Shown here piece after piece: positions 6,610 through 26,213 of a stretch of 64,000 nt of DNA. Each line of letters starts with the position of its first letter. Positions within the stretch are counted from its first letter, which is position 1. Source of the stretch: a virus; the IMG/VR virus record IMGVR_UViG_3300026183_000930, positions 32,001-96,000 of that record; one strand, written 5' to 3'. A program made the position numbers and the translations under genes. The notes under the pieces were generated by a model. That model did no database searches, had not been told where the DNA came from, and saw only the letters and a list, made by a program, of their open reading frames with translations.

Positions 6610-7704
6610 TTATGAATTACTGATAATATTAGTTAATGTTTTATTTGCTGTGCAATGCAATAAACACACTGTACATTTGTCATGATGACCAGCAAAACTG
6701 TCAGGCAACCATTTTGTATAGAGATCATGTTCAAGCATGTCGAGGATAGTGTTGCTTTTACTGAGTTGATTGAAATTTAATTTGTACATTTTATCAAACA
6801 TGGCACTCCAATCTTTCCATCTGCTTCTACCATATTTCCAATTACCTTCATCTTCTACAGCCCAAAAACAACAAGGCCACAGTTTGCCCCATTGATCCAC
6901 AAACAGATAACCTTCTTTGGTTGTTCTACAGTCTATGGAAACAGATTGATCTTGATCCAGTGTGTGCCATGATTTGGCTTGTTGTTCTATTTTTGCAGGG
7001 TCACTAGCTTCTGCTGGTTTTATGGTAAAACCTTGTTGTTTGATTTTTTGATCCACTTTGTTTATTTTGGGTGAATATTTTTTAGAGTTCACATTTATTG
7101 TGCTGTCTGGTTTTGAAAAACGATTGCTCACAACAGTGGAGAACTGTGTGAATCCCATTTTTTTAGACAGCTCACGTGCCTGCTCCACTTGATGCTGATT
7201 GTGATCAAATATGATGTACTTCCATTCAGCCTGACCTCCAGCATCTATAAACGCCTGTGCGTTGGCCATTATGCGATCAAAGTCAGTGTTGATTCTGTAC
7301 AATGCATTTGTGTCTGCCAACCCATCGATGCTGAATCTTATTGTGAAATTGTTTTTGTGTGCCAGTCTACGATAGAATTCTGGTGTTCTTGCACCACCGT
7401 TTGTTTCCATAAACACATCTTTGTAGTACTGCAACCCAATGTCTATTATTTGTTCTATGTTGGCATGACTGACTGCATCGCCAGTGGTACCACAGAATGA
7501 TGCTGTGATGTTGCCAGCATGTGAACCCAATCCCTGTGCTATGGTTTCAAACAGTGCAGGCGATATGCTGGTCAAATGCAATTGATTTGTATCTCCACTG
7601 TGTTGCCATTCCAACATCTGTGTTCTAGCACAACCCGGACAACCTGCGTTGCAACGATTTGTTATGTTGAATTCTATGTAGTTGATCTGTTCCGGAGCAA
7701 TCAT
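6610..7704 (-). CDS. Radical SAM protein with C-terminal Cys-rich (SPASM/twitch-like) domain
   Basis: CNAGCPGC, ETNGG, FSIDG, PCC, CxxC. Confidence 0.85.
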   Translation of the reverse strand: MIAPEQINYIEFNITNRCNAGCPGCARTQMLEWQHSGDTNQLHLTSISPALFETIAQGLGSHAGNITASFCGTTGDAVSHANIEQIIDIGLQYYKDVFMETNGGARTPEFYRRLAHKNNFTIRFSIDGLADTNALYRINTDFDRIMANAQAFIDAGGQAEWKYIIFDHNQHQVEQARELSKKMGFTQFSTVVSNRFSKPDSTINVNSKKYSPKINKVDQKIKQQGFTIKPAEASDPAKIEQQAKSWHTLDQDQSVSIDCRTTKEGYLFVDQWGKLWPCCFWAVEDEGNWKYGRSRWKDWSAMFDKMYKLNFNQLSKSNTILDMLEHDLYTKWLPDSFAGHHDKCTVCLLHCTANKTLTNIISNS

Positions 7705-7738
7705 TCTATACGTATTTATTGATTATGTAAATACTGTT

Positions 7739-8026
7739 ATGAACAAACAACAAGTGTTAGACAGTTTAAAACAGTTGATTCCTTATCGCAAGTATCAAAA
7801 CGAAGGCCATGAAGCAGTGCATATTGCTGACACCATAGGACCCGATCGTGTGTTCAACGACAGATCCATCTGTGCTTTGATCAGTGCTATCCATGAAATC
7901 ACTGACGATCCAGACATCAAGCAGTTGGCACTGGAAGCCATATGGATGTCAGGTCGTATGCACAAATCCATACGTGAAGCCAAACACAGCAATGACATAT
8001 GGCCCGATGTTCTTCGCGACGATTAA
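7739..8026 (+). CDS. Hypothetical protein (start MNKQQ)
   Basis: GTAAATA-N5-ATG at 7727-7741. Confidence 0.6.
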   Translation: MNKQQVLDSLKQLIPYRKYQNEGHEAVHIADTIGPDRVFNDRSICALISAIHEITDDPDIKQLALEAIWMSGRMHKSIREAKHSNDIWPDVLRDD

Positions 8027-8460
8027 CCACACAAGGCCCTGCCTTGTGTATGTGCGGAGTTTACTCTGCACTTAGGCCTCTCGGCGGTTATCAGGAGTAA
8101 GAGGCATCCAATTTCCTTTATTCTACTAGATCGGGCAGGCCAACGGTGCAAGAGATATCTCTCAAATCTAGTCAACCGCACACAGGCTACTCAGAATACC
8201 TTCTAGTCTAGAAGTCATGATCCAGATTCCATAGATTTCAGTCACTGTTGTCACAGTAGTCAAAAGTACTAACCCTGCTGTCAGACTTGCTGTAAGGTGC
8301 TTAAAATGTGTTTAAAAGGTGTTTTTAACGTGTATATATGCTAGATCATTCTTCACAGCCTCTCAACGGTGGGTCACGCTCAGGAGGGCGTGGTGGGTTT
8401 CCGCGGCGTTTTCACATACATTGCTCTCTTACAATAAACGGGGTCACATACAATTGGTCG
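8027..8460 (+). ncRNA. Putative large structured RNA or origin-like element between convergent genes
   Basis: GC-richer, many hairpins with G-U pairs favouring + strand; 5' TGTATGTG pairs with 3' CACATACA. Confidence 0.4.
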
Positions 8461-11756: not shown

Positions 11757-11951
11757 TTACCAATTATTTGTGGATTTAACAGATTTATGACCTAGTATTT
11801 TGCCTTCATTTTTACCATGTTTTACCAAGTATCCTGAAGTTCCATTACCATTAATATCTACTTCTTTCTTTGCACTGAACATTACCATTGCCTTACGAGC
11901 AAGTGATGAGTTCTTTGCATAGTTTTTGAGTAGATGACTGAATCGTGCCAT
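11757..11951 (-). CDS. Small basic protein downstream of glutamine riboswitch
   Basis: 64 aa, RBS GGGGAGGGTGAT-ATG. Confidence 0.7.
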   Translation of the reverse strand: MARFSHLLKNYAKNSSLARKAMVMFSAKKEVDINGNGTSGYLVKHGKNEGKILGHKSVKSTNNW

Positions 11952-11976
11952 ATCACCCTCCCCGGTTAAAGTTTAG

Positions 11977-12024
11977 GTGCGTTCCTTCGCTTTATGCTAC
12001 TTCCGACCCTAATGGGTTGAACGT
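11977..12024 (-). promoter_or_regulatory. glnA-type glutamine riboswitch (glutamine-I)
   Basis: ACGUUC-A-ACCC-AUUA-GGGU-CGGAAGUA-GC-AUAAA-GC-GAAG-GAACG-CAC fits the three-way junction/E-loop consensus as I recall it. Confidence 0.8.
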
Positions 12025-12075
12025 ATTTGTATTTAGCATACCAGGTATGCAATTTTTTAATACTAGTTTACCCAT

Positions 12076-17746: not shown

Positions 17747-17791
17747 AAAAAAAAGCCCCGGACTAGTGTAACCAAATGTTACTGCCGGGGT
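17747..17791 (-). terminator. Terminator of the repeat RNA
   Basis: ACCCCGG...CCGGGGC hairpin followed by U8. Confidence 0.75.
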
Positions 17792-18123
17792 AAACAAAAA
17801 TACTTTTTTGTCTGTTATCATATTCGAGCTTGTTGGCAGAATTTTATAAGCCTTTTTAAGAACATTCGTTCCGCTAACTGCCAGCTCGAACAATATGAGC
17901 ATTTTTAAACTACTGGAGTCGCTCAAAGCAAAGACATTTTTAAGCCACTATAGCCGTCTTTAAATAAAGGCACTCTTTATATCCTAAACGGAAGCCTTTT
18001 AAATGTAAGCCTTTTTACTTGCTACTGCATCGCTTACTAAAACGAAAGCCTATTTAAACTACTAGAGTCGCTTTCAATACTTGCTAAAGCATTTTTAAAC
18101 CTAAGTCGCTTTGTGTTGCAAGT
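17747..18123 (-). ncRNA. Tandem seven-module structured RNA (unknown family)
   Basis: Units at 17849-17875, 17896-17925, 17930-17961, 17966-17999, 18005-18037, 18044-18075, 18086-18112; covarying stems and conserved UAAAAA(U/G) bulge. Confidence 0.75.
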
Positions 18124-18272
18124 GTAATTAGTTATGACCTAAGATTGTTCTATATGTATCCAGTTAATATTTTTTTTATTAACACATCATATATCTGTTA
18201 TACTGCTTTTTTATTTTGCCACTTGGCCAATTAAGTAATTGTGCAATGAATGTTTGAACAGGAGATACTACT

Positions 18273-18587
18273 ATGGACAGGAACAAAATAGAACAGTTAG
18301 AAGAAAGACTTGATGAACTTGAAACAAAACTTGACGACATCATGTCTGTGCTGGAAATGGATAATGAGCATGATGATTACGAGTACGAAAATGATGAGCA
18401 TGACAATGAAGATGAAATTTGTGAAGATTGTTATGAGGCTCCATGTGCTTGTTACAACCATGATGATGAAGACAACGATTTTGAAGATGATGAAGATGAG
18501 GACGAAGAATACGTAGACGAAAACGATTGGGATTCATCTAATGATGATGAAGACGAAGATGAATATGACGACGAAAATGACAAATAA
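18273..18587 (+). CDS. Extremely acidic protein with N-terminal coiled coil and CxxC..CxC
   Basis: 104 aa, long Asp/Glu runs, RBS AGGAGA. Confidence 0.7.
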   Translation: MDRNKIEQLEERLDELETKLDDIMSVLEMDNEHDDYEYENDEHDNEDEICEDCYEAPCACYNHDDEDNDFEDDEDEDEEYVDENDWDSSNDDEDEDEYDDENDK

Positions 18588-25130: not shown

Positions 25131-26213
25131 TTACGCCTCTGTAATTAGAGAGCCGTATCTTTTGTAAAAGTCATCAAAACTAGACAACTTTTTAGGGTTA
25201 AATGGTAGACTGTAAGTCTTAAGAGCAGTTCTGGCTCCTAACACTACCATTTCAGTTTCAAAGTTATTCATCATAAACTTTAAGAAACAGTCTGCCATTT
25301 TATGCCAGTCATCCATCTTTTTGGATTTCTGAGCATTTTCACACTCACCTTTTAACTCATAACACATTGAAGTGATCAGAGTGTACATAGCACTAATCTC
25401 TTTTGTCTTTAGAGATTTCACTTTGCCTTTTAGAATTTCTGATGGATTTGGAAGATCCCCAGAAATCTTTCTGTGAGCCTGAAACTTGGTTGCAAGACCT
25501 TCACCAACAGCACCAGAAATAATATCTGTCATCTGTACAGTTGGCATTTCGTCATCTATCACTTCAGAAACGAAACTCCATGATCTTGGTGTTGCAAAAC
25601 CTCTTGAACTTGATGATGGATCAAAATCATATAAGTCTTGTTTTGCAAATGTTAAATAACCTACAACTTCAGGATGAATTTGGTTTTCTGTAGCCCATAC
25701 TAACCAATCATCAAAGTTAGGTTCCATTTCAATATGAATTACCCTGTTTGCAAGTGGACTAGGCATTCTGTAAGTAACACCTTTGTCACTTTCTCTGTTA
25801 CCGGCCGCCACTACTGACACACCTTTGGGCAACACATAAGTACCAATTCTTCTGTTAAGAATCAACTGATACGCCGCCGCCTGGGTAGCCATTGGAGCCG
25901 CATTTAATTCGTCCAAAAACAATATGGCTGTGCTTTTAGGATCTGAAGGTAGATCAACTGGTGGTGCCCAATCCATTTTGTTTTGTGATTTGTTGTAATA
26001 TGGAATACCTCTAAGATCAGTAGGTTCCATAAGAAGCAAACGTAGATCAATAACTTCACGATCAAGTTTTTGACCTATCTGTGCAATGATATCTGATTTA
26101 CCAATACCTGGAGGTCCCCATATCATTACTGGTCGTTGCTTTTTGATTAGATGCTCTACTTCTGCTATTGCATCTGATGGTCTAGTAGTTCTGTGTGTAC
26201 TAACTTTTGACAT
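25131..26213 (-). CDS. MoxR/CbbQ-like AAA+ ATPase
   Basis: GPPGIGKS, LFLDELN, AAGNR, TPRSW; adjacent to VWA partner. Confidence 0.9.
   Translation of the reverse strand: MSKVSTHRTTRPSDAIAEVEHLIKKQRPVMIWGPPGIGKSDIIAQIGQKLDREVIDLRLLLMEPTDLRGIPYYNKSQNKMDWAPPVDLPSDPKSTAILFLDELNAAPMATQAAAYQLILNRRIGTYVLPKGVSVVAAGNRESDKGVTYRMPSPLANRVIHIEMEPNFDDWLVWATENQIHPEVVGYLTFAKQDLYDFDPSSSSRGFATPRSWSFVSEVIDDEMPTVQMTDIISGAVGEGLATKFQAHRKISGDLPNPSEILKGKVKSLKTKEISAMYTLITSMCYELKGECENAQKSKKMDDWHKMADCFLKFMMNNFETEMVVLGARTALKTYSLPFNPKKLSSFDDFYKRYGSLITEA

Follow-up and report, generated by a model that had tools for sequence, protein, structure and literature searches.

CsrB, RsmY and RsmZ are protein-sponge RNAs built from many hairpin modules with a GGA motif in their loops. 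The phage DNA analysed here, a 64-kb stretch (the window) of a 124-kb virus record (IMGVR_UViG_3300026183_000930) to which all coordinates refer unless marked otherwise, encodes on its minus strand (18123-17747) a seven-unit structured RNA array, read from the sequence, that follows a similar plan. This array is a structured non-coding RNA gene of its own, with a promoter-like box and a terminator, and it represents an undescribed RNA family carried by a clade of uncultured jumbo phages from marine and estuarine waters. With CsrB, RsmY and RsmZ it shares its abundance, its standing as a separate RNA with its own promoter and terminator, a common single-stranded motif in its modules, and a module number that differs among relatives. 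Unlike those RNAs, it is phage-encoded and presents an A-rich bulge of 7 nucleotides (nt) on the 3' side, flanked by a C-G pair and a G.U pair; no GGA is conserved in the loops of the array units, and there was no Rfam match.

The absence of a named family is not limited to CsrB-type RNAs. Searched over its full length against Rfam 15, a collection that includes families of antitoxins and of CRISPR direct repeats, the window gave only a tRNA and the glutamine riboswitch at gathering thresholds, and a permissive search of the array returned one meaningless match (E = 5) and no family at E ≤ 10 on the units. The family, which an earlier note on this DNA did not recognise, was not found among those in Rfam either. 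Literature searches, supplementary files excluded, retrieved no description of the array RNA or of phage Hfq partners.

Type III antitoxins (ToxI, CptI and TenpI) and the pseudo-ToxI of phage PhiTE offer a second comparison. ToxI units are 36 nt long, and escape mutants of PhiTE raise their repeat number from 1.5 to 4.5-5.5, according to the excerpts of PMC3475682 used here; excerpts of PMC12283969 report non-identical repeats for TenpI antitoxins. As far as these partial texts go, the array resembles such loci in its tandem 36-38-nt units, in the A-rich segments between structured cores, in the terminator after the array and in a copy number that shifts among related phages (PMC3475682, PMC12283969). 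It differs in having no toxin gene and in consisting of diverged nested hairpins, not of near-identical pseudoknot units. Array transcripts, unlike those of type III antitoxins, span several units, with partial processing possible. The 36-38-nt period of the inner units is in the range of the direct repeats (~34-45 nt) by which type III loci are recognised, but the units are diverged. The earlier note had seen the layout of a type III antitoxin locus in the order of promoter, repeats, terminator and open reading frame (ORF); this likeness fails at the last element, as no toxin gene lies behind the array and the basic 29-residue ORF found there occurs only in the window strain group. In other lineages the genes behind the terminator are unrelated or convergent, with no endoribonuclease toxin. 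The ToxN family (PF13958) had no match in the 124-kb record, the CptN and TenpN families not having been searched by accession.

RNA anti-CRISPRs (Racrs) are small phage RNAs able to titrate a host RNA-binding defence protein by mimicry, as the array might also do; in the excerpts of PMC10651486 they mimic CRISPR repeats and are mostly solitary units, unlike the array, which is without spacers. No likeness to a CRISPR direct repeat was found at E ≤ 10 among Rfam families, the repeats of the host not having been compared. By phage kinship, judged from an ATPase with 52% identity, the nearest precedents are ncRNA001 and ncRNA002 of the Pseudomonas jumbo phage PA5oct, abundant RNAs that the partial text of PMC7318152 describes as highly transcribed, with up to ~5% of phage reads. 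The module of the array, in contrast, is absent from both (best model score, 12.4 bits).

Structure of the module and the array

Each module begins with an outer stem of 3-7 bp, followed by a C-G pair and an inner hairpin of 3-6 bp that starts with G.U and has a loop of 3-7 nt. On the 3' side come seven unpaired bases, U-A-A-A-N-A-K, and then the return strand of the outer stem. The seven units start 37, 38, 38, 38, 36 and 48 nt apart, with linkers of 2-10 nt separating neighbours. On re-reading the sequence, the positions and description of the seven minus-strand units given in the earlier note proved accurate. The bulge, which it had written as UAAAAAK, is conserved in the looser form U-A-A-A-N-A-K, but that of unit 4 is 8 nt long and differs.

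The evidence for the fold comes first from the window genome itself. Among the seven units, 87.8% of pair cells are paired, versus 67.5% with shuffled 3' partners, a value that none of 500 shuffles reached, and sliding the partners by 1-3 columns leaves only 19-57% of the cells paired. The claim that the outer stems covary within one genome is borne out by these figures. A covariance model built from the seven window units scores 27.5-38.9 bits on those units, as compared with 16.1 bits for the best match outside the array in the 64-kb window and 11.1 bits for the plus strand of the array. On the plus strand every conserved G.U pair would turn into an A.C mismatch, and the contrast between 11.1 bits there and up to 38.9 bits on the minus strand agrees with the proposal that the G-U pairs are functional on the minus strand only. 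A scan of the whole 124-kb record with the model found no further unit copies. Tandem Repeats Finder reported nothing in the array, suggesting the units are too diverged for a simple DNA repeat; they resemble one another in shape more than in letters.

The same constraints are found across the family. The model finds 57 unit matches, of which 30 are distinct, from nine sources. In the alignment of the 30 distinct units, which was fitted to the model and so favours structure somewhat, 88.1% of cells are paired versus 67.9% when shuffled, the covariation score is 0.596 versus 0.226 (reached in 0 of 500 shuffles), and slid partners give 23-52%. The closing C-G pair is present in all 30 distinct units. 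The next pair is G.U in 25 of the 30 and is never G-C or A-U, and bulge positions 2, 3 and 5 (model columns) are A in 29-30 of 30, with loops and stem lengths varying freely among units. RNAalifold, given a plain MAFFT alignment of the 3' part (nine rows), independently predicted the hairpin, the terminator and, in the last unit, all four nested stems, with a compensatory change in 9 of 34 pairs. Both sides of the two outer stems of the composite last unit have changed in the L340, L331 and L362 arrays.

Differences among five near-identical strains point in the same direction. All seven distinct differences lie in loops, linkers, the second bulge or the interior of the terminator, leaving untouched the 207 paired and 50 main-bulge positions among the 377. 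By simple arithmetic the chance of this pattern for random hits is ~(120/377)^7, or 3 in 10,000.

The individual parts, all on the minus strand, are arranged as follows. Unit 1 (18112-18086) stands on a 6-bp stem formed by ACUUGC (18123-18118) and GCAAGU (18084-18079), the whole element covering 18079..18123; this extra stem is kept in six of seven array versions, one with a G-U variant and one with an additional nested stem. Unit 2 (18075-18044) has the bulge UAAAUAG, and unit 3 (18037-18005) has two inner-stem mismatches in the window genome in a stem that is perfect in relatives. Unit 4 (17999-17966), designated unit X, is the odd one, with the 8-nt bulge UAAAGAGU. Units 5 (17961-17930) and 6 (17925-17896) precede a composite last unit (17823..17890), in which unit 7 (17877-17847) and a second bulge, UAAAAUU (17846-17840), are enclosed by a 6-bp stem and a 7-bp outermost stem. 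These two further stems are formed by 17890-17878 pairing with 17839-17823, and the first and last units do sit on extended stems, as the earlier reading had it. The closing hairpin and U8 terminator of that reading are likewise present: a 9-bp A/U hairpin with a 4-nt loop (17813-17792), found in all nine aligned rows, and an intrinsic terminator (17790-17747) consisting of a 6-bp G+C clamp, a variable inner stem and U8. The sequence of the terminator inner stem is lineage-specific and its pairing, as read from the alignment, is preserved.

Two other readings of the bulge and loops were considered. A K-turn or UAA/GAN motif does not fit the units starting with GG or UU, and a loop-to-bulge pseudoknot was set aside on reading the sequences.

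Upstream of unit 1 lies a -10-like box, CATAAC (18131..18136, minus strand), with a putative promoter role, and transcription is predicted to start near 18123-18124. The box is conserved in six lineages as [C/G]ATAA[C/T], a constant 10 nt before TTGCA (TCGAG in the two-unit form). The longer form of the motif had four matches in the window versus 5.06 expected, and as the conserved box is not repeated beyond chance, no promoter class can be named. The CTAATTA motif proposed as late-promoter-like is indeed present at 18131-18125, but its late-promoter label is unsupported: TATAAATA occurs only twice in the 64 kb versus 5.15 times expected. A -7 box of the Bacteroidetes type was set aside on reading the sequences.

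Relatives and transcripts

The first relative was found with a unit-consensus pattern in a 242-kb viral contig (L139/G004, the same as L362), in which two units are followed by a homologous hairpin and terminator. A further pattern, linking the last bulge with the terminator, matched 37 metagenome stretches, 10 of which have arrays. Homologues that keep the structure, for which the earlier note had suggested a model-based search of phage and metagenome contigs, occur in one viral contig and in 10 of the 37 loci.

Seven array versions were counted: those of the window strain group (seven units, with four further near-identical contigs), L333 (seven), L342 (eight), L359 (eight), L340 (seven, six from the model and the seventh read by eye), L331 (five) and L362/G004 (two). 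The family ranges over uncultured marine and estuarine phages with two to eight units, and a recent unit duplication is evident in L342 and L359. Every version has the box upstream of its first stem and keeps the composite last unit, and each ends in the small hairpin followed by the U8 terminator. Unit X is nearly letter-identical in every array with at least five units; single units therefore have orthologues and are maintained separately.

Other routes led to no further arrays. Relatives of the neighbouring genes were of little help: a 184-residue neighbour has six relatives in viral contigs, none with an array (best model match, E 0.57), no relatives of the 255-residue and 153-residue neighbours were found, and the single relative of the AAA ATPase lies in a 73-kb record (G001) without an array. 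A pattern of three bulges in a row matched at least 119 stretches, and none of the 80 loci scanned exceeded 17.8 bits. Two bulges followed by GCT matched at least 114 stretches, with an array in none of the 75 loci scanned (the known L139 was not rescanned), and of 22 stretches with the hairpin-terminator pattern L139 was the one real match. Solitary pattern-selected matches inside ORFs in L135 (33.3 bits) and L157 (26.9 bits) were taken as chance, and L272, from a giant-virus bin, proved to be a simple direct repeat and not the module. In bacterial and archaeal genomes the exact 3' pattern, the only one used there, gave 16 matches, none with an array, and blastn of 1 kb against 50,697 phage records gave no match.

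The window AAA ATPase (CobS-like; 25131-26213, minus strand) has its best isolate match in PA5oct, at the 52% identity mentioned above, and CheckV puts the completeness of the 124-kb record at 35%. Together these point to a jumbo phage of ~350 kb and not to a T4-like cyanophage.

RNA corresponding to the array is present in environmental libraries. About half of the array's sampled words occur in six RNA runs from six studies. When contigs of four RNA libraries were placed on the 3 kb around the array, they covered 17793..18110, with an upper end at 18109-18110 in all four libraries and lower ends at 17793, 17804, 17816 and 17822; contigs of 288 and 317 nt extend across the entire array. Apart from flanking pieces in run X16, the well-fitting RNA pieces within these 3 kb lie on the array only, and the other short pieces lie on an acidic low-complexity repeat, with loose ends running into unrelated sequence. 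The uncovered parts of the 3 kb are no evidence for silent genes. The contigs from X15, X16 and X17 carry variants of the L329 strain, whose flanks (180-260 nt) closely match the window and are uncovered in X15 and X17. Contaminating DNA should cover the flanks equally, which argues against it as the source.

In X16 the array RNA is much more abundant than RNA of the flanking genes. There the array contigs have a mean word depth of 374-925, and the phage flanking contigs, three pieces of flanking genes with 0-4 differences, have 5.5-7.2; the ~100-fold ratio is merely indicative, since contig depth is a poor measure and the strains are mixed. The common end at 18109-18110, which directly adjoined an Illumina adapter once, could reflect either 5' processing of the RNA or a library effect. 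The primary transcript would be ~375 nt long and the abundant form ~290-320 nt. The earlier expectation of a minus-strand RNA of ~375 nt is in part supported, as RNA contigs cover 17793-18110, but the contigs give no strand.

Genomic neighbourhood

The genes flanking the array differ between lineages in all seven versions compared, which argues that the RNA is not the leader of one gene. In the window, a 29-residue ORF (17722-17633, minus strand) with 18 arginine or lysine residues lies directly 3' of the terminator and is preceded by TATAAATA. It is confined to the near-identical strain group of the window, and its peptide has no Pfam match. In four other versions a convergent small ORF of ~40-50 residues abuts the terminator, which its 3' end overlaps (minus strand; L333 3201-3431, L342 6319-6549, L331 8830-9120 and L340 2467-2616). 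These candidate genes have a basic N-terminus and a conserved YQK-NLLT segment, with 49-71% mutual identity. Other genes stand behind the terminator in L359 and G004.

On the other side of the array, its divergent upstream neighbour is a hyper-acidic protein of 104 residues (18273-18587, plus strand) with a coiled-coil-like N-terminus, found in three lineages (the window group, L359 and L340) at 53-59% identity over 44-60 residues. In G004 a gene with a cold-shock domain lies two genes upstream of the array and is preceded by a small Cys-rich acidic ORF (L191 (G004:C1), ~757-1020 in L384 coordinates; G004:C1:9229-9417, plus strand). Such a gene is near the array in G004 only, and RRM domains had no match in either G000, the window record, or G004.

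A cassette of a glutamine riboswitch, single or in tandem, and a small basic protein of ~64 residues recurs in the wider region (window 11757-12025, minus strand; L342 6474-6806; L331 9018-9066; L359 1899-2227). By Rfam, the riboswitch is 0.2-4.3 kb from the array in L331, L342 and L359 and ~5.7 kb from it in the window; homologues of the small protein are also near the L333 and G004 arrays, and the distance between cassette and array varies. Farther off, a segment of the window at ~7680-8180 shares 92-100% identity in every reading frame with L333 and L342, the flanking genes being at 67-77%, and L331 has a related piece immediately upstream of its array. The segment, for which Rfam gave no match, may represent a strongly conserved gene, a sequence exchanged recently or a further RNA.

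Possible functions of the array RNA

The structure of the array and its conservation, its strand asymmetry, its variable copy number and its presence in RNA libraries are established. A multivalent protein-binding decoy or scaffold is the most economical reading of two to eight modules around an invariant bulge, given that a constant single-stranded motif is rigidly framed by pairs and everything else varies freely, that the modules number two to eight, their duplication and loss being evident, and that the RNA is abundant independently of its neighbours, in keeping with the design of CsrB and RsmZ. More specifically, it is plausible, if somewhat short of probable, that the RNA serves as a sponge or platform and that its partner is a protein recognising A-rich single-stranded RNA. 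Each module would present its A-rich bulge as one binding site, and the abundant RNA as a whole may soak up or organise an RNA-binding protein during infection.

The leading candidate for such a partner would be Hfq, either that of the host or an Hfq-like protein of 77 residues encoded in the phage record (Pfam Hfq, 54.8 bits against a cut-off of 27). The gene for the latter (minus strand; G000:C1:98405-98572; L383 1468-1701) is ~2.4 kb past the end of the window and ~48 kb from the array. Its product has 23 homologues in metagenome proteins, at 65-100% identity, and none among 50,697 isolate phage records. In alignments with solved Hfq chains, the NGIKL segment of the protein is retained. Hfq ligands feature A-R-N repeats and U-tails, and class II small RNAs (sRNAs) use A-R-N repeats together with a U-tailed terminator. 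In the array, an A-R-N-A-R-N hexamer occurs in or at the bulge of all 30 distinct units, and U8 stands behind a conserved G+C stem in all nine aligned rows; the RNA contigs do not reach U8. The array thus resembles Hfq-binding sRNAs in its hexamers, its U8 terminator and the Hfq-like gene in the same record. Unlike them, it has its A-rich sites as short bulges locked between helices, in up to eight copies, and no seed region or target is evident in it.

Several observations weigh against a protein sponge, and against Hfq as its partner in particular. Protein binding, the identity of the partner and any consequence for the host are what we infer. Folding of the single sequence is unremarkable (z of -1.46 for the minus strand and -2.18 for the plus strand), the minimum-energy fold misses units 1-3, and the helices of the modules are of low thermodynamic stability and compete among themselves. 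The RNA contigs start 13-14 nt past the predicted start and end before the terminator, so that the U-tail may be absent from the abundant form; their strand is unreadable, and their depth is a poor measure of expression. In the phage Hfq-like protein the YKH box has D for H, and the basic residues that references carry near the N-terminus are missing; residues of this kind are assigned to the faces of Hfq, and the protein may therefore not behave as a standard Hfq. The A-R-N count is nearly automatic in a run of five A, and two triplets make a short Hfq site. G004 (242 kb, 55% complete) has the array and no Hfq match, and the reverse holds for G001 (73 kb, 20% complete), where an Hfq homologue (56% identity) occurs without an array; this distribution weighs little because both are fragments. 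The link to Hfq is weak, consisting of co-presence in one genome. Finally, the invariant hinge of C-G and G.U suggests a partner that reads shape, and such a hinge is not needed for Hfq.

The main rival is an anti-defence decoy, in which the modules would mimic the substrate or inhibitor of a host RNase acting at A-rich sites, as the pseudo-ToxI of PhiTE does; candidate targets would be a type III toxin of the ToxN or AbiQ kind, a HEPN RNase or a Cas6-type enzyme. We regard this as rather unlikely. In its favour, the RNA is abundant, and its region is variable and lies beside the hyper-acidic protein, a conserved divergent neighbour in three lineages. The inner period of 36-38 nt is close to the 36 nt of ToxI units, and the copy number varies from two to eight, with duplications in L342 and L359, much as PhiTE escape mutants expand their repeats in the excerpted account (PMC3475682). 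The repeats of TenpI are likewise non-identical, as far as the excerpts of PMC12283969 go. The nested hairpins, however, have orthologous, individually conserved members such as unit X, unlike a set of near-identical copies. The RNA contigs extend over several units, so that at least part of the RNA is not cut into monomers. ToxN prefers to cut in an AAAU context, and about half of the units are without one. No Rfam family was found at E ≤ 10 on any unit, and there is no host antitoxin or repeat for comparison.

An account that needs no protein, in which the bulges dock in minor grooves or the modules are minimal aptamers that buffer or sense a small molecule, is distinctly less probable. Small aptamers and tertiary motifs have cores like the C-G pair, the G.U pair and the fixed 7-nt bulge of the module, and the region is rich in RNA sensors, with glutamine riboswitches nearby in L331, L342 and L359. 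A defined tertiary architecture, however, should not tolerate two, five, seven or eight modules or loops and stem lengths that are free to vary, and there is neither a candidate ligand nor a conserved regulated downstream gene.

Arginine-rich motifs bind TAR and boxB, and the array could by analogy form a ribonucleoprotein with an adjacent peptide rich in arginine and lysine, in the window that of the 29-residue ORF. The position of that ORF, with its 18 such residues directly behind the terminator, and the basic N-terminus of the convergent small ORF in L333, L342, L340 and L331 would suit this proposal. It nevertheless seems improbable, since the two kinds of peptide are unlike and neither occurs in all lineages (L359 and G004 differ), and the window peptide, the one searched, has no Pfam match. 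Besides, A/T-rich DNA readily gives lysine-rich frames, and the convergent ORF is partly the complement of the terminator. Least probable of all, and hardly to be expected, is that the RNA acts in cis as a riboswitch-like leader or attenuator and sets how often transcription continues past the U8 terminator into the next gene, a role for which the window order of promoter, structured RNA, terminator and ORF might speak, as might a same-strand glutamine-riboswitch gene within 0.2-0.3 kb in L333, L342 and L331 (the riboswitch was tested in L342 and L331 and inferred for L333 from a homologous 66-residue gene), but the downstream gene is different in every lineage and convergent in four, the terminator is strong and conserved with no alternative pairing with the array evident, and RNA contigs show the array alone.

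A multivalent protein-binding RNA is thus still the simplest account. RNAs of this general kind, modular and with probable repeated binding of a protein, are known; new are the motif, the phage origin and the possible pairing with a phage Hfq. A two-part kit for taking over post-transcriptional control in the host, in which the locked A-rich bulges of the abundant RNA saturate the A-binding face of Hfq or of another global binder of A-rich RNA and the phage adds an Hfq variant without the YKH histidine and the rim-like basic residues, is conceivable, albeit doubtful. If true, this would make the array the first protein-sponge RNA of phage origin that has a recognition motif of a new type, and it would give phage Hfq genes a role.

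Phage proteins have been catalogued far better than phage structured RNAs, and jumbo phages such as PA5oct are known to make abundant RNAs. Whatever its function, the array RNA is a well-supported candidate for a new Rfam family, and its 30-nt module, with an invariant core, strong covariation, a natural range of copy numbers and a presence in environmental RNA, offers an entry point into this field. If Hfq or a defence RNase is what the RNA titrates, it would represent a new viral means to disarm or reprogram the cell by RNA alone, and the module would also be a ready-made, tunable binding tag.

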